Positions 21,741 through 44,375 of a stretch of 64,000 nt of DNA are shown here, one piece after another. Every line of letters starts with the position of its first letter. The first letter of the stretch is position 1. Origin of the DNA: Escherichia coli (GTDB lineage Bacteria > Pseudomonadota > Gammaproteobacteria > Enterobacterales > Enterobacteriaceae); NCBI RefSeq assembly GCF_044647545.1, contig NZ_CP172818.1. One strand, written 5' to 3'. Under the pieces are notes generated by a model. The model was given only the letters and a program-made list of their open reading frames with translations, was not told the origin of the DNA and made no database searches. Position numbers and translations under genes: made by a program.

Positions 21741-21995
21741 TCAAAAGCCGTTCAGTTTGCGATCGCGCGCCCACTCCGCAGGGGTATACGCTTTGATCGA
21801 CACAGCATGAATGCGGTTATCCGCAATATATTCCATCAGCGGGCCATAGACCGTCTGCTGTTTTTTAACCCGACTCATGCCGTCAAACAACTCACCCACG
21901 GCAATAACCTGAAAGTGGCTGCCATCGCCGGAAACGTGGACTTCCTGGAGGGAGAGAGCGTTCATCAACACGCTCTGAATTTCATTATTTTCCAT
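21741..21995 (-). CDS. ibaG: BolA-family acid-stress protein IbaG (YrbA)
   Basis: ORF ...[75 protein letters not shown]...; start moved to MENNEIQ (84 aa). Confidence 0.8.
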
Positions 21996-22114
21996 GGGAT
22001 CTTCAATCATCAGTTAATAAATCAGCGAAACATCTTAGAGCAAAGTTGCGCTGGCATAAATAAGCAAAAAGCCTCGCTGATAAATCAGACAAGGCTCGAC
22101 TTGCAGGCAGGTTT

Positions 22115-22147
22115 GCCGGACAGGCGGTTAACGCCATATCCGGCCTG
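22115..22147. repeat. REP (repetitive extragenic palindrome)-like element between ibaG and mlaB
   Basis: gccggacaggcggttaacgccatatccggcctg resembles the E. coli REP consensus GCCGGATG..GCG....CGC..ATCCGGCCTAC. Confidence 0.4.
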
Positions 22148-22154
22148 AAAAAAT

Positions 22155-22447
22155 TTAACGAGGCAGAACATCAGCAGGCAAATTATACAATTTCGCCAGG
22201 GTATACACTTTGTCGTTTACCCCCTGAAGCGTCACATTGTTGCCCTGCTTTTTCGCCAGATCGATAAGATGGAGCAGCAGTGCCAGTCCACCCGTATCCA
22301 CGCGAGACACACGGCTAAGATCGATGCTGGTAATCCCCTTCACCGCTTCCTCACGTATTTCCCAAAGCGGTAGCAGAACGTCCTGATCCAGCTCTCCGGA
22401 TAACGCCAGCGTGTCACCCGTCTGCATCCAGCTCAGTGACTCGCTCA

Positions 22448-22448
<1 letters not shown>
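22155..22448 (-). CDS. mlaB: Phospholipid ABC transporter STAS-domain protein MlaB
   Basis: ORF contains MSESLSWMQTGDTLALSGELDQDVLLPLWEIREEAVKGITSIDLSRVSRVDTGGLALLLHLIDLAKKQG...; start moved to MSESL (97 aa); last gene of the mla operon. Confidence 0.8.
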
Positions 22449-23101
<653 letters not shown>

Positions 23102-39274: not shown

Positions 39275-39914
39275 AGCCTGCCATTTTTAGCTCAATTCGG
39301 CGATGACCTGGATCAATCGTCCCGGCCTGCTTTTATCAACTGCATAATCAATCAAAATTACCGAAATTTCATGCACAATCACATAAATCACTTTTGCTTA
39401 TCTTGTGTCAGATTTTTTTATCTCCTTATGGATTTTAGGCAAAAACAGTAGCATGAAACGTTATTACCAATTAAGGCAGTATAAAATGCTGGTTTTCTCG
39501 TCAGTTCAAGGCAGGATAAGGGTTAACACGCCTTTATGACAGTCAGGAATTGACTGTTTCTCTAACGACGCCCTTTTAGCCTTAAATAGAAAATCCACTT
39601 TAATTTCAGACAATTAATAAAGAATTTTGCGCTAAAGCACATTTCTGTACCAATAAGCTTGCCATTTGACCTGTATCAGCTTTCCCGATAAGTTGGAAAT
39701 CCGCTGGAAGCTTTCTGGATGAGCAGCCTGCTCATCATATTTATGCAGTAATTGAGATCCCCTCTTCACCGTATTAACCGATGCGAAAAGGACAACAAGG
39801 GGGCGAATGCGAGGCGCGCGTATGACACGCAAACCCCGTCGCCACGCTCTTACTGTGCCCGTGCGCAGCGGTTCGGAAGTGGGGTTCCCGCAGAGCCTGG
39901 GGGAGGTTCACGAT
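39275..39914 (+). promoter_or_regulatory. Long AT-rich gltBD promoter/leader region
   Basis: About 640 bp non-coding upstream of the gltB start, AT-rich with A/T tracts; position matches the multi-regulator gltBDF promoter of E. coli; individual sites not resolved by eye. Confidence 0.45.
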
Positions 39915-42900
39915 ATGTTGTACGATAAATCCCTTGAGAGGGATAACTGTGGTTTCGGCCTGATCGCCCACATAGAAGGCGAACCTAGCCACAAGGTAGT
40001 GCGTACTGCAATACACGCACTGGCCCGCATGCAGCACCGTGGCGCGATTCTCGCCGATGGTAAAACCGGTGACGGTTGCGGCTTGCTGTTACAAAAACCG
40101 GATCGCTTTTTTCGCATCGTTGCGCAGGAGCGCGGCTGGCGTTTAGCAAAAAACTACGCTGTCGGGATGCTCTTCCTGAATAAAGATCCTGAACTCGCCG
40201 CTGCCGCACGCCGCATCGTTGAAGAAGAGCTGCAACGCGAAACATTGTCGATTGTGGGCTGGCGTGATGTCCCCACTAACGAAGGCGTGCTGGGTGAAAT
40301 CGCCCTCTCCTCTCTGCCACGCATTGAGCAAATTTTTGTGAACGCCCCGGCAGGCTGGCGTCCACGCGATATGGAGCGCCGTCTGTTTATCGCCCGCCGC
40401 CGCATTGAAAAGCGTCTCGAAGCCGACAAAGACTTCTACGTCTGTAGCCTGTCGAATCTGGTGAACATCTATAAAGGTCTGTGTATGCCGGCGGATCTGC
40501 CGCGCTTTTATCTGGATCTTGCGGACCTGCGTCTGGAATCGGCCATTTGCCTGTTCCACCAGCGCTTTTCCACTAACACCGTACCGCGCTGGCCGCTGGC
40601 ACAGCCGTTCCGCTACCTCGCGCATAACGGTGAAATCAACACCATCACTGGTAACCGCCAATGGGCGCGTGCGCGTACCTATAAATTCCAGACGCCGCTG
40701 ATCCCTGACCTGCACGACGCCGCGCCGTTCGTCAACGAAACCGGCTCTGACTCCAGTTCCATGGATAACATGCTGGAACTGCTGCTGGCAGGCGGGATGG
40801 ATATCATCCGCGCCATGCGTCTGTTAGTGCCACCCGCCTGGCAGAACAACCCGGATATGGACCCGGAACTGCGTGCCTTCTTTGACTTTAACTCCATGCA
40901 TATGGAGCCGTGGGATGGCCCGGCAGGCATCGTGATGTCTGACGGTCGTTTTGCCGCCTGTAACCTCGACCGTAACGGTCTGCGTCCGGCACGCTATGTC
41001 ATCACCAAAGATAAGCTCATTACCTGCGCCTCTGAAGTCGGTATCTGGGATTATCAGCCTGACGAAGTGGTCGAAAAAGGCCGCGTCGGGCCAGGCGAAC
41101 TGATGGTGATCGACACCCGCAGTGGGCGTATTCTGCACTCGGCAGAAACCGATGACGATCTGAAAAGCCGCCATCCATATAAAGAGTGGATGGAGAAAAA
41201 CGTCCGCCGACTGGTACCGTTTGAAGATCTGCCCGATGAAGAAGTGGGTAGCCGCGAACTGGACGACGACACGCTTGCCAGCTACCAGAAACAGTTTAAC
41301 TACAGCGCGGAAGAGCTGGACTCCGTAATTCGCGTACTGGGTGAAAACGGTCAGGAAGCCGTCGGTTCGATGGGCGATGATACCCCATTCGCCGTGCTCT
41401 CCAGTCAGCCGCGCATTATTTACGACTACTTCCGCCAGCAGTTTGCTCAGGTAACCAACCCGCCAATCGACCCGCTGCGTGAAGCGCATGTTATGTCGCT
41501 CGCCACCAGCATTGGCCGCGAAATGAACGTCTTCTGCGAAGCTGAAGGCCAGGCGCACCGTTTAAGCTTTAAATCGCCGATTCTGCTCTATTCCGATTTC
41601 AAACAGCTCACGACGATGAAAGAGGATCACTACCGCGCAGATACGCTGGATATCACCTTTGACGTCACTAAAACCACGCTCGAAGCGACGGTGAAAGAGC
41701 TGTGCGACAAAGCCGAAAAAATGGTACGTAGCGGCACCGTGCTGCTGGTGCTCTCCGACCGGAATATCGCTAAAGATCGCCTGCCGGTTCCGGCTCCGAT
41801 GGCGGTTGGCGCGATCCAGACCCGTCTGGTCGAGCAAAGCCTGCGTTGCGATGCCAACATCATCGTCGAAACCGCCAGCGCCCGTGATCCGCACCACTTC
41901 GCCGTGTTGCTGGGTTTCGGCGCGACGGCTATTTATCCGTACCTTGCCTATGAAACGCTGGGCCGTCTGGTAGACACCCACGCGATTGCCAAAGATTATC
42001 GTACCGTGATGCTCAACTATCGTAACGGCATCAACAAAGGCTTGTACAAAATCATGTCCAAAATGGGCATCTCCACCATCGCCTCTTATCGCTGCTCGAA
42101 ACTGTTTGAAGCGGTCGGTCTGCACGATGATGTCGTGGGCCTGTGCTTCCAGGGCGCGGTTAGCCGCATTGGCGGGGCGAGCTTTGAAGACTTCCAGCAG
42201 GATCTGCTGAATCTGTCGAAACGTGCCTGGCTGGCGCGTAAGCCCATCAGCCAGGGCGGCCTGCTGAAATACGTGCACGGTGGCGAATACCACGCCTACA
42301 ACCCGGACGTGGTGCGCACACTGCAACAGGCGGTACAAAGCGGCGAGTACAGCGACTATCAGGAATACGCGAAGCTGGTTAATGAGCGTCCGGCAACCAC
42401 GCTGCGCGATCTGCTGGCAATTACGCCGGGTGAAAACGCAGTCAACATTGCCGATGTTGAACCGGCAAGCGAACTGTTTAAACGCTTCGATACCGCTGCG
42501 ATGTCTATCGGCGCGTTAAGCCCGGAAGCCCACGAGGCGCTGGCTGAAGCGATGAACAGCATCGGCGGTAACTCGAACTCCGGTGAAGGGGGTGAAGATC
42601 CGGCGCGCTACGGTACCAACAAAGTCTCACGCATCAAGCAGGTGGCGTCCGGTCGCTTCGGTGTTACTCCGGCGTATCTGGTCAATGCTGACGTCATTCA
42701 GATTAAAGTCGCCCAGGGCGCGAAGCCGGGCGAAGGCGGTCAGTTGCCGGGTGATAAAGTCACTCCTTACATTGCCAAACTGCGCTATTCGGTGCCCGGA
42801 GTGACGCTGATCTCCCCGCCGCCGCACCACGATATCTACTCTATCGAGGACTTAGCGCAGCTCATTTTCGACCTCAAGCAGGTTAACCCGAAAGCGATGA

Positions 42901-44375
42901 TCTCCGTGAAGCTGGTGTCCGAACCGGGCGTCGGCACCATCGCGACTGGCGTGGCGAAAGCTTATGCGGACTTGATCACCATCGCAGGCTATGACGGCGG
43001 CACCGGCGCAAGTCCGCTTTCATCGGTGAAATACGCAGGCTGTCCGTGGGAGCTGGGGCTTGTTGAAACCCAACAGGCGCTGGTTGCCAACGGCTTGCGT
43101 CACAAGATCCGTTTGCAGGTTGATGGCGGCCTGAAAACCGGCGTTGATATCATCAAAGCGGCGATTCTCGGCGCAGAAAGCTTCGGCTTCGGCACTGGCC
43201 CGATGGTGGCGCTCGGCTGTAAATATCTGCGTATTTGCCATCTGAACAACTGCGCGACGGGTGTTGCAACTCAGGATGACAAACTGCGTAAGAATCACTA
43301 TCACGGCCTGCCGTTCAAGGTGACTAATTACTTTGAGTTTATCGCACGTGAAACCCGCGAGCTGATGGCACAGCTGGGGGTAACGCGTCTGGTGGATCTG
43401 ATTGGTCGCACCGACCTGCTGAAAGAGCTGGACGGTTTCACCGCCAAACAGCAGAAACTGGCGCTGTCGAAGCTGCTGGAAACTGCCGAGCCACATGCAG
43501 GTAAGGCACTCTACTGCACCGAAAACAACCCGCCGTTTGATAACGGCCTACTGAACGCGCAGTTGCTGCAACAGGCAAAACCGTTTGTCGATGAACGCCA
43601 GAGCAAAACCTTCTGGTTCGATATCCGCAACACCGATCGTTCTGTCGGCGCGTCGCTTTCAGGCTATATCGCCCAGACGCACGGCGATCAGGGGCTGGCT
43701 GCCGATCCGATCAAAGCATACTTCAACGGCACCGCAGGCCAGAGCTTCGGTGTGTGGAACGCGGGCGGCGTGGAACTGTATCTGACCGGCGATGCTAACG
43801 ACTATGTCGGTAAAGGCATGGCGGGCGGCTTAATTGCCATTCGTCCTCCGGTTGGCTCAGCCTTCCGCAGCCATGAAGCAAGCATTATCGGCAACACCTG
43901 CCTGTATGGCGCGACCGGAGGTCGTCTGTATGCCGCAGGCCGCGCGGGTGAACGTTTCGGCGTACGTAACTCCGGTGCTATCACCGTGGTAGAAGGCATT
44001 GGCGACAACGGCTGTGAATATATGACGGGCGGTATTGTCTGTATTCTGGGTAAAACCGGCGTTAACTTCGGCGCGGGCATGACCGGCGGCTTCGCTTACG
44101 TTCTCGATGAAAGCGGCGATTTCCGCAAACGCGTTAACCCGGAACTGGTCGAGGTCTTAAGCGTTGACGATTTGGCGATCCATGAAGAGCATCTGCGTGG
44201 TCTTATCACCGAGCATGTGCAGCATACCGGTTCCCAGCGCGGTGAAGAGATTCTGGCGAACTGGTCAACCTTCGCCACGAAATTCGCGCTGGTTAAACCG
44301 AAGTCCAGTGATGTAAAAGCACTGCTGGGTCACCGTAGTCGTAGCGCAGCAGAGTTGCGCGTGCAGGCGCAGTAA
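39915..44375 (+). CDS. gltB: Glutamate synthase (NADPH) large subunit
   Basis: ORF track 39807..44375 (1522 aa); start placed at MLYDKSLERDNCGFGLIAHIEGEPSHK... for the 1486-aa form; glutamine amidotransferase, FMN and Fe-S domains. Upstream in-frame Met at 39822 is an alternative. Confidence 0.93.
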   Translation: MLYDKSLERDNCGFGLIAHIEGEPSHKVVRTAIHALARMQHRGAILADGKTGDGCGLLLQKPDRFFRIVAQERGWRLAKNYAVGMLFLNKDPELAAAARRIVEEELQRETLSIVGWRDVPTNEGVLGEIALSSLPRIEQIFVNAPAGWRPRDMERRLFIARRRIEKRLEADKDFYVCSLSNLVNIYKGLCMPADLPRFYLDLADLRLESAICLFHQRFSTNTVPRWPLAQPFRYLAHNGEINTITGNRQWARARTYKFQTPLIPDLHDAAPFVNETGSDSSSMDNMLELLLAGGMDIIRAMRLLVPPAWQNNPDMDPELRAFFDFNSMHMEPWDGPAGIVMSDGRFAACNLDRNGLRPARYVITKDKLITCASEVGIWDYQPDEVVEKGRVGPGELMVIDTRSGRILHSAETDDDLKSRHPYKEWMEKNVRRLVPFEDLPDEEVGSRELDDDTLASYQKQFNYSAEELDSVIRVLGENGQEAVGSMGDDTPFAVLSSQPRIIYDYFRQQFAQVTNPPIDPLREAHVMSLATSIGREMNVFCEAEGQAHRLSFKSPILLYSDFKQLTTMKEDHYRADTLDITFDVTKTTLEATVKELCDKAEKMVRSGTVLLVLSDRNIAKDRLPVPAPMAVGAIQTRLVEQSLRCDANIIVETASARDPHHFAVLLGFGATAIYPYLAYETLGRLVDTHAIAKDYRTVMLNYRNGINKGLYKIMSKMGISTIASYRCSKLFEAVGLHDDVVGLCFQGAVSRIGGASFEDFQQDLLNLSKRAWLARKPISQGGLLKYVHGGEYHAYNPDVVRTLQQAVQSGEYSDYQEYAKLVNERPATTLRDLLAITPGENAVNIADVEPASELFKRFDTAAMSIGALSPEAHEALAEAMNSIGGNSNSGEGGEDPARYGTNKVSRIKQVASGRFGVTPAYLVNADVIQIKVAQGAKPGEGGQLPGDKVTPYIAKLRYSVPGVTLISPPPHHDIYSIEDLAQLIFDLKQVNPKAMISVKLVSEPGVGTIATGVAKAYADLITIAGYDGGTGASPLSSVKYAGCPWELGLVETQQALVANGLRHKIRLQVDGGLKTGVDIIKAAILGAESFGFGTGPMVALGCKYLRICHLNNCATGVATQDDKLRKNHYHGLPFKVTNYFEFIARETRELMAQLGVTRLVDLIGRTDLLKELDGFTAKQQKLALSKLLETAEPHAGKALYCTENNPPFDNGLLNAQLLQQAKPFVDERQSKTFWFDIRNTDRSVGASLSGYIAQTHGDQGLAADPIKAYFNGTAGQSFGVWNAGGVELYLTGDANDYVGKGMAGGLIAIRPPVGSAFRSHEASIIGNTCLYGATGGRLYAAGRAGERFGVRNSGAITVVEGIGDNGCEYMTGGIVCILGKTGVNFGAGMTGGFAYVLDESGDFRKRVNPELVEVLSVDDLAIHEEHLRGLITEHVQHTGSQRGEEILANWSTFATKFALVKPKSSDVKALLGHRSRSAAELRVQAQ

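Follow-up and report, generated by a model that had tools for sequence, protein, structure and literature searches.

A likely relic of a decayed y-type REP follows mlaB in Escherichia coli and precedes the intrinsic terminator of the mla operon

The palindrome located immediately downstream of mlaB in Escherichia coli is most likely a decayed, solitary and immobile relic of a y-type REP, lying in the mlaB 3′ UTR as a stable stem-loop ahead of the terminator. It is neither the terminator of the mla operon nor a BIME. REPs, their decay, their placement after stop codons and their effects at the RNA level have already been well described in E. coli, and in this sense the element is an ordinary one.

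The palindrome was studied within a 64,000-nt stretch of DNA, referred to here as the window. The window derives from the E. coli chromosome, as many complete genomes match an 801-nt query spanning the site at 100% identity. The gene cluster consists of ispB and sfsB on the plus strand and of murA, ibaG, mlaB, mlaC, mlaD, mlaE and mlaF, all on the minus strand. Window positions are converted to K-12 coordinates by adding 3314808, and the K-12 MG1655 sequence is identical in the palindrome-bearing part of the mlaB–ibaG spacer. The features of the region, in window coordinates, are as follows.

22155–22448, minus strand: mlaB CDS from the ORF list, 97 aa as annotated in K-12 (b3191, K-12 3336963–3337256); the stop codon is TAA at 22155–22157.
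22145–22154, minus strand: spacer of 10 nt separating the first paired base from the stop codon (AUUUUUUCAG), the last four bases of which, TCAG, replace the GTAG of a REP.
22114–22148, minus strand: REP-equivalent element of 35 nt, consisting of TCAG, then GCCGGAUAU GGCG UUAAC CGCC UGUCCGGC, then A.
22097–22113, minus strand: linker from the REP-like hairpin to the terminator hairpin (AACCUGCCUGCAAGUCG), the most variable part of the spacer in Escherichia (11–21%).
22071–22096, minus strand: stem-loop of the mla operon terminator (AGCCUUGUCUGAUUUAUCAGCGAGGCU), conserved, −12.4 kcal/mol in the MFE fold.
22058–22070, minus strand: U-tract of the terminator, UUUUUGCUUAUUU, with the RNA 3′ end at 22066 (K-12 3336874).
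22011–22057, minus strand: conserved block upstream of ibaG (…GCGCAACUUUGCUCUAAGAUG…), near-invariant across all genera and 3–5% divergent in Escherichia.
21741–21995, minus strand: ibaG CDS from the ORF list, 84 aa as annotated (K-12 b3190), with the annotated start at 21995.

The block at 22011–22057 probably represents the promoter and 5′ leader of ibaG–murA; a sigma-70 consensus scan found no ibaG promoter within it. In TraDIS-Xpress experiments, outward-reading insertions in mlaB–F increased murA expression (PMC7566553). As to existing annotation, the RefSeq records of MG1655 and W3110 contain no REP features anywhere, even at the classic yaaX–yaaA REP, and their silence at the palindrome is therefore uninformative. 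The mlaB–ibaG locus is unmentioned in PMC8266576 and has no entry in the RepRanger sRNA table (PMC12306157).

Both the inverted-repeat arms and the predicted fold confirm that a palindrome stands right after mlaB, as the first-pass annotation had claimed, although the span it assigned (22111–22154) is slightly generous compared with the REP-equivalent span of 22114–22148. The two arms of the 30-nt palindrome occupy positions 22115–22129 and 22130–22144. In mlaB-sense RNA they form the hairpin GCCGGAUA-U-GGCG UUAAC CGCC UGUCCGGC, which has 12 bp, a single bulged U and a 5-nt loop. Folding of the 150-nt mlaB–ibaG spacer as mlaB-sense RNA produced three separate hairpins (z = −4.78 relative to shuffled sequences). 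The palindrome is the strongest hairpin in the spacer, at −19.9 kcal/mol versus −12.4 kcal/mol for the terminator hairpin, and falls within the range computed for consensus y and z REPs (−19.5 to −22 kcal/mol).

Being the strongest hairpin of the spacer and directly following the last gene of the operon, the palindrome might be taken for the mla terminator, or for half of a two-hairpin terminator, with no relation to REPs. However, it is followed by AAACCUGCC with no U-tract, and so lacks the makeup of an intrinsic terminator. The neighboring hairpin at 22071–22096 has that makeup, combining covariation, a U-tract and a mapped 3′ end. This second hairpin is present in essentially all 80 enterobacterial orthologs (the best 80 of 418). 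Its consensus has nine pairs, five of which show compensatory double changes, and is followed by TTTTTGCTT, which is invariant across genera; moreover, genera devoid of the REP terminate with this hairpin alone. In a published Term-seq data set (PMC7815308, Adams et al. 2021; supplementary files 1 and 3), a 3′ end is placed at K-12 position 3336874 on the minus strand. This end is backed by 45,215 reads in one condition and 62,344 in the other, and scores 2.63 as an intrinsic terminator and 1.25 ('No') for Rho. The mapped end falls between …GCGAGGCTTTTT and GCTTATTTAT, so that window position 22066 is the last U of the second hairpin's U-tract. In the same wild-type data, the 33369xx range that holds the REP-like hairpin is free of listed 3′ ends. 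A simple consensus promoter/terminator scan also left the palindrome unflagged; it missed the true terminator as well, because the stem of the latter is bulged.

Thus, with the 3′ end mapping to the downstream terminator and AAACCUGCC rather than a run of Us behind the palindrome, the element resides inside the mlaB 3′ UTR. The earlier placement of the element at the end of the mla transcript does not hold, since the conserved intrinsic terminator is 20–90 nt further downstream. That the palindrome serves as the mla terminator has next to no likelihood, and we reject this reading on sequence, comparative and Term-seq grounds. Coverage upstream versus downstream of the true terminator is 169 versus 126; together with the TraDIS-Xpress report (PMC7566553), this suggests that termination is incomplete, that a promoter lies close downstream, or both.

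How closely does the palindrome resemble a REP? REPs were harvested from 230 kb of K-12 by selecting on the palindrome foot alone, with neither the tail nor the stem interior pre-selected. The harvest yielded 22 canonical REPs, together with two chance matches inside genes and a single hairpin lacking the tail. Two covariance models were used: R1, built from 22 K-12 copies of both y and z types, and R2, built from 17 y copies only. On R1, genuine K-12 REPs, including 17 copies outside the seed, score 39–64 bits. On R2, y REPs score 50–65 bits, z REPs 28–42 bits, and a held-out decayed y copy near malE–malF 24.7 bits. The mlaB element obtained 14.1 bits on R1 (E ~0.014) and 14.4 bits on R2 (E ~0.019), with E-values that are rough and marginal when taken alone. 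These scores place it inside the 10–16-bit noise band, which in control DNA is made up of unrelated hairpins and of true REPs read on the wrong strand. The first-pass annotation had itself named poor scoring by REP models as the outcome that would count against a REP, and with about 14 bits set against 39–65 for real copies, the identification as a canonical REP essentially fails.

Within the 64-kb window, the element nevertheless ranks first on both models. The runner-up, at 43531–43551, lies within a 1,522-aa ORF and is not credible. A scan with the 3′ half-site consensus returned only the mlaB site and one chance match in the window. The half-site pattern GCCKGATGCGRCGY with three mismatches allowed gave 57 matches versus 42.5 expected, and is too permissive to discriminate. 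The claim that the window holds no second REP-like sequence is thereby borne out, as no other credible match emerged from the REP-model scans. In Rfam, RF02564 (naRNA4), the sole REP-derived family there, matches 22088–22145 on the minus strand with 20.6 bits and E = 0.97, below the gathering score of 59.5. The element is therefore not a member of this family, and the weak match arises because the family was built from REPs.

At the level of individual features, the element shares much with the y-type REP of E. coli (Bachellier/Gilson; PMC3333891; PMC8266576). It is an extragenic imperfect palindrome of 35 nt, within the 30–40 nt expected of REPs, and it follows a stop codon, has the foot GCCGGAT/TCCGGC and the trailing A, retains T11 and G32, and folds at about −20 kcal/mol. 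The differences concern the features by which a REP is recognized and mobilized. The tetranucleotide is TCAG instead of GTAG, the latter being exact in 20 of the 22 harvested K-12 REPs and altered by one base in the other two. The AA/GC stem bulge, A12A13–G26C27, present as AA…GC in 17/17 copies of the y-only alignment, is gone: A12 is paired with U27, leaving the single bulged U13. Further differences include a rewritten 3′ arm, a loop of 5 nt rather than 4, a score of 14 versus 50–65 bits, and an occurrence that is single-copy and outside any BIME. It was reported that binding and cleavage by TnpA_REP require both GTAG and the A12A13–G26C27 bulge (PMC3333891, PMC8266576), and that the protein further contacts C27, T11 and G32, with T tolerated at position 27 in SELEX (PMC8266576). 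Since GTAG and the bulge are both missing, the mlaB element is predicted to be, very probably, no substrate for TnpA_REP (RayT).

Nor does the element behave as a repeat. The exact variant is single-copy, with a per-genome median of one occurrence in 5,425 E. coli genomes, and so does not show the repetition typical of REPs. No partner REP was detected as a second match either in the spacer or elsewhere in the window, which separates it from BIMEs. Binding of gyrase and IHF is a property of paired-REP BIMEs and their linkers. The IHF core consensus WATCAANNNNTTR has eight matches in the window and none within 22011–22160. We therefore reject the suggestion that the element binds gyrase or IHF, as it stands alone and lacks a partner REP, a linker and an IHF core motif.

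These observations bear on whether the palindrome is an active, bona fide REP, that is, a canonical copy which ends and stabilizes the mla mRNA, serves as a binding site for gyrase or IHF, and can be processed by the REP transposase. Its foot, its length, its extragenic position directly after a stop codon, its top rank on both models in the window and the weak match to the REP325-derived naRNA4 family would all agree with such an element. The roughly 14-bit scores, the absence of GTAG and of the bulge needed for TnpA_REP binding (PMC3333891, PMC8266576), the lack of a partner, linker or IHF motif in the spacer, the copy number that is invariant across 5,425 genomes, and the transcript end mapping to the downstream terminator argue against it. 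We regard an active REP as extremely improbable, largely refuted by the model scores, the missing GTAG and the missing bulge. What stands of the REP assignment is that the element is REP-derived, solitary and directly after mlaB; what does not is canonical status, denied by the score and by the loss of GTAG and the AA/GC bulge.

Scores inside the noise band could also be explained by a chance or convergent GC-rich hairpin that never descended from a REP. Tail-less GCCGGA hairpins do exist elsewhere in K-12, downstream of pepD (L003:29213–29248) and between crl and phoE (L003:34014–34037), and they score 12–13 bits. Against this explanation, the 5′ arm of the mlaB element read in REP orientation, AGGCCGGATATGGCGTTAAC (22127–22146, minus strand), is identical to the y-REP arm at 18 of 20 positions. 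The match reaches past the foot into the GGCGTT.AC loop region, and only 0.01 matches to the y arm are expected by chance per window even with three mismatches allowed. In addition, the length is exactly the 35 nt of a REP. The 3′ arm of the mlaB element shows no match to the REP consensus; it has changed so as to pair with the 5′ arm.

The comparison of orthologous spacers speaks even more directly to ancestry. The comparative set comprised the best 80 of 418 orthologous loci detected via IbaG, with the spacer defined as the stretch bounded by the mlaB stop and the ibaG start. The spacers fall into the following classes.

About 125 nt, most genera: TTTTTTCAGTACGTTAC…, then the hairpin and TTTTTGCTT; no REP.
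About 136 nt, Klebsiella, Raoultella and Kluyvera: no REP.
158–159 nt, Escherichia: REP-like hairpin, 11–14 bits on R1.
169–171 nt, most Citrobacter: one REP in the E. coli position and orientation (GTAGGCCGGATAAGGCCTTGTGCCGCCATCCGGCA), 28–36 bits on R1.
199 nt, Salmonella enterica subsp. arizonae and two Citrobacter: full BIME (…CTAC, linker, GTAG…), 32–44 bits.

The Escherichia spacer is thus ~34 nt longer than that of the REP-less genera. At the orthologous position in Citrobacter there is an unmistakable REP with GTAG, bounded on both sides by the same flanking sequences as in Escherichia. Moreover, Escherichia and the REP-bearing Citrobacter have in common the derived terminator variant AGCCTTGTCTGATTTATCAGCGAGGCT, which indicates that the whole spacer is homologous between the two. 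The tetranucleotide at the Citrobacter site occurs as GTAG, GTAA, CCAG or TCAG, and orthologs whose tail has turned into GTAA, CCAG or TCAG fall to 18, 17 and 11 bits on R1. Within the 10-nt post-stop spacer of E. coli, TTTTTTCAG is also found in REP-less genera, so we read it as ancestral flank or decayed tail; the ancestral counterpart of 22097–22144 is given as TACGTTACTATCGAA.

Taken at the sequence level, this homology points decisively to descent of the mlaB palindrome from a REP, and within the series of orthologous REPs the E. coli copy is the one that has decayed furthest. A hairpin of chance or convergent origin is accordingly very improbable.

The related BIMEs (L013, L022 and L023), found in S. 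enterica subsp. arizonae and some Citrobacter, occupy the same spacer, belong to the same repeat family and start within ~5 nt of the mlaB stop. They differ in consisting of two canonical inverse REPs (32–44 bits) next to a degraded terminator hairpin, whereas in E. coli a single decayed copy accompanies an intact terminator. The strength of the terminator also varies across the set. The mean energy of its hairpin is −12.0 kcal/mol in Escherichia, −11.1 in Citrobacter and −5.5 in the BIME carriers, versus −14.3 kcal/mol in the 54 REP-less spacers. On raw counts, the association of a weaker terminator with a REP or BIME yields a Mann–Whitney p = 1.6e-8, a nominal value that is not meaningful as the REP-bearing taxa form one or two clades. 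For the same reason, we treat terminator weakening as a lead and not as a result.

The history we favor for the decayed REP can be outlined as follows. A y-type REP would have inserted into the mlaB–ibaG spacer in an ancestor common to Escherichia and part of Citrobacter. The features recognized by TnpA_REP/RayT would then have been lost, with GTAG turning into TCAG and the AA/GC bulge into a paired A–U plus a one-base bulge, while the 3′ arm was presumably remodeled toward near-perfect pairing with the well-preserved 5′ arm. A similar course is seen in the decayed y REP by malE–malF (K-12, L006:45092–45126), which has a CCAG-type tail and a stem perfected through its 3′ arm, and scores 13.4 bits on the mixed model. 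That copy differs in scoring 24.7 bits on the y model and in belonging to a REP cluster, whereas the mlaB copy scores 14.4 bits and is isolated.

We also asked whether the hairpin is under constraint. A 136-nt segment is complete in 5,425 of 5,426 complete E. coli genomes and at least 99% identical in 5,403 of them, whereas only 3,396 genomes reach 99% identity over the surrounding 801 nt. Neither presence/absence nor copy-number polymorphism of the element was observed in E. coli. Across the six distinct sequences compared within Escherichia, pairing is kept in 72 of 72 pair cells, and four pairs vary. One of these is a compensatory CG-to-UA swap in E. albertii; the other three are C-to-U changes giving G·U wobbles, which pair only in mlaB-sense RNA. 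In a structure-conservation test of the hairpin, 77 of 500 shuffles did as well, which leaves the test with low power. Divergence of the hairpin among Escherichia species is 7–17%, versus 5–27% for third codon positions. The terminator hairpin (4–8%) and the block upstream of ibaG (3–5%) are clearly more constrained.

This pattern is compatible either with weak selection for an RNA stem-loop or with a slowly decaying neutral relic. The second reading accepts the decayed REP as described and denies that it affects either the stability of mla mRNA or the translation of MlaB; a small GC-rich hairpin would merely decay slowly, with nothing selecting against it. It fits the divergence of the hairpin, which resembles that of third codon positions while the terminator and promoter block are constrained, as well as the non-significant covariation test, the absence of a mapped 3′ end at the hairpin, and the free decay of the Citrobacter orthologs in tail and stem, down to 11 bits. 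On the other hand, all stem substitutions in Escherichia keep pairing, including the double compensatory change and the three strand-specific G·U wobbles, and the segment is less variable in E. coli than its surroundings, with 0.4% of genomes below 99% identity versus 37% for the 801-nt region. It is also physically unlikely that a hairpin of −19.9 kcal/mol only 10 nt past the stop would be invisible to ribosomes and exonucleases. On balance, an entirely neutral relic is possible but doubtful.

If the decayed REP instead acts as an RNA element, its action would follow from its place in the transcript. It is transcribed as part of the mlaFEDCB mRNA, in the 3′ UTR, 10 nt past the UAA and upstream of the intrinsic terminator, and we infer that it would act there as a passive, very stable stem-loop. 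Once the weaker terminator hairpin had been breached, it would pose a second barrier to 3′-to-5′ exonucleases, and such a barrier would protect the upstream mla message. Newbury, Higgins and colleagues reportedly described in 1987 mRNA 3′ ends stabilized by REPs, for example at malE–malF. The mlaB element resembles these as a stable 3′-UTR stem-loop that could block 3′-to-5′ exonucleases; it differs in that a true terminator follows it and carries the mapped 3′ end, with no REP-proximal end in the wild-type Term-seq data. Stabilization of the upstream mla mRNA by the hairpin is thus plausible on this model. Any intermediate of an exonuclease block is not abundant, as Term-seq lists no 3′ end at the foot of the hairpin.

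A second potential effect concerns translation, since a hairpin so close to the stop codon might obstruct the terminating ribosome and reduce the amount of MlaB. According to the account of Liang, Rudd and Deutscher (2015) summarized in PMC12306157, REPs situated less than 16 nt downstream of a stop codon reduce translation of the gene that precedes them. The mlaB element resembles these stop-proximal REPs as a stable hairpin inside this range as the summary gives it, with 10 nt from the UAA to the first paired base and 6 nt to the tetranucleotide position. It differs from them in not being a canonical REP, although the mechanism, as reported in that summary, needs the RNA hairpin and not GTAG (PMC12306157). 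By analogy, the element may lower MlaB output, an effect that would depend on the hairpin and on trans-translation.

A more ambitious proposal is that the REP relic was co-opted as a regulatory 3′-UTR module. The hairpin would then set the output of MlaB relative to MlaFEDC, and gain of the REP or BIME would have let the terminator weaken toward tuned read-through into ibaG–murA, coupling maintenance of outer-membrane lipids to peptidoglycan synthesis. We consider this improbable, and return to the decayed y-type REP with a stable stem-loop as the preferred reading.

For annotation, the end of the mla operon transcript should be assigned to the intrinsic terminator (K-12 3336874) and not to the palindrome. 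Beyond correct annotation, the relic at mlaB is of little consequence in itself. However, this one orthologous spacer provides a natural series that runs from no REP through a canonical REP and decayed relics to a full BIME, and it may be used to follow how REPs enter, decay and interplay with an adjacent terminator. If it is true that the stop-proximal hairpin damps MlaB synthesis, the element would also matter for the stoichiometry of the Mla transporter subunits.

Searches of the window with half-site consensus sequences and covariance models recovered no canonical REP anywhere across its 64 kb (1–64000). In the 230 kb of K-12 DNA that served as control, about 16 loci together hold about 41 REPs, a density at which about 4.5 REP loci would be expected in the window (Poisson P of zero about 0.01). 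The window is therefore REP-poor. The second-best match to the REP models within it was the following:

43531–43551, minus strand: GTAG-prefixed mini-hairpin (GTAGGCCGTTATCAAACGGCG), 12.7 bits

This hairpin is located within an ORF of 1,522 aa (39807–44375, plus strand), and we set it aside as a chance match. The IHF core consensus WATCAANNNNTTR occurs eight times in the whole window against 2.6 expected, a number reached by none of 100 shuffles, and none of these eight matches lies near the REP-like element of the mlaB–ibaG spacer.

The K-12 control also provided examples of degenerate REPs and of hairpins resembling them:

L006:45092–45126 (K-12 4245092–4245126): decayed y-type REP adjoining the malE–malF REPs
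L003:29213–29248: tail-less GCCGGA…TCCGGC hairpin, downstream of pepD
L003:34014–34037: tail-less GCCGGA…TCCGGC hairpin, between crl and phoE

The first of these has a CCAG tail and a "perfected" stem, and it scores only 13.4 bits with the mixed (y and z) REP model and 24.7 bits with the y-only model. REP ancestry is thus compatible with a low mixed-model score. The two tail-less hairpins resemble the foot of a REP, yet they reach just 12–13 bits; they could represent further REP relics or simply terminator-type hairpins.

Among the orthologous enterobacterial loci, two kinds of additional element were observed in the mlaB–ibaG spacer:

L013:1006–1095, L022:1006–1095 and L023:1006–1096: full two-REP BIME, in Salmonella enterica subsp. 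arizonae and two Citrobacter
about 1072–1095 of L014–L037: extra small hairpin (e.g. CCCCTGAAGGGG), in REP-bearing Citrobacter spacers

The BIME begins about 5 nt past the stop codon, and in its three carriers the terminator hairpin is degraded (−7.2 and −3.8 kcal/mol, compared with about −14 kcal/mol in REP-less genera). The extra Citrobacter hairpin is placed between the REP and the terminator, whereas Escherichia spacers have no such hairpin.

As for the flanking genes, mechanically derived ORFs exceed the annotated lengths of both:

22155–22544: mlaB ORF, 129 aa from an upstream GTG (97 aa annotated)
21741–22010: ibaG ORF, 89 aa (84 aa annotated)

In K-12, the end of mlaC overlaps the annotated mlaB start (3337256) by one base. 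A second copy of the mlaB–ibaG segment is carried on a plasmid in one or two complete E. coli genomes, a search of the collection placing the 801-nt query at two plasmid sites and the 136-nt query at one.

Finally, the cross-genus comparison delineated a conserved element between the terminator U-tract and ibaG:

22011–22057, minus strand: conserved block (…GCGCAACTTTGCTCTAAGATG…)

This block is the best-conserved stretch of the mlaB–ibaG spacer, with a divergence of 3–5% for the Escherichia species, and is almost unchanged across every enterobacterial genus compared. It is probably the site of the ibaG–murA promoter or leader, although a sigma-70 consensus scan returned no match within it.
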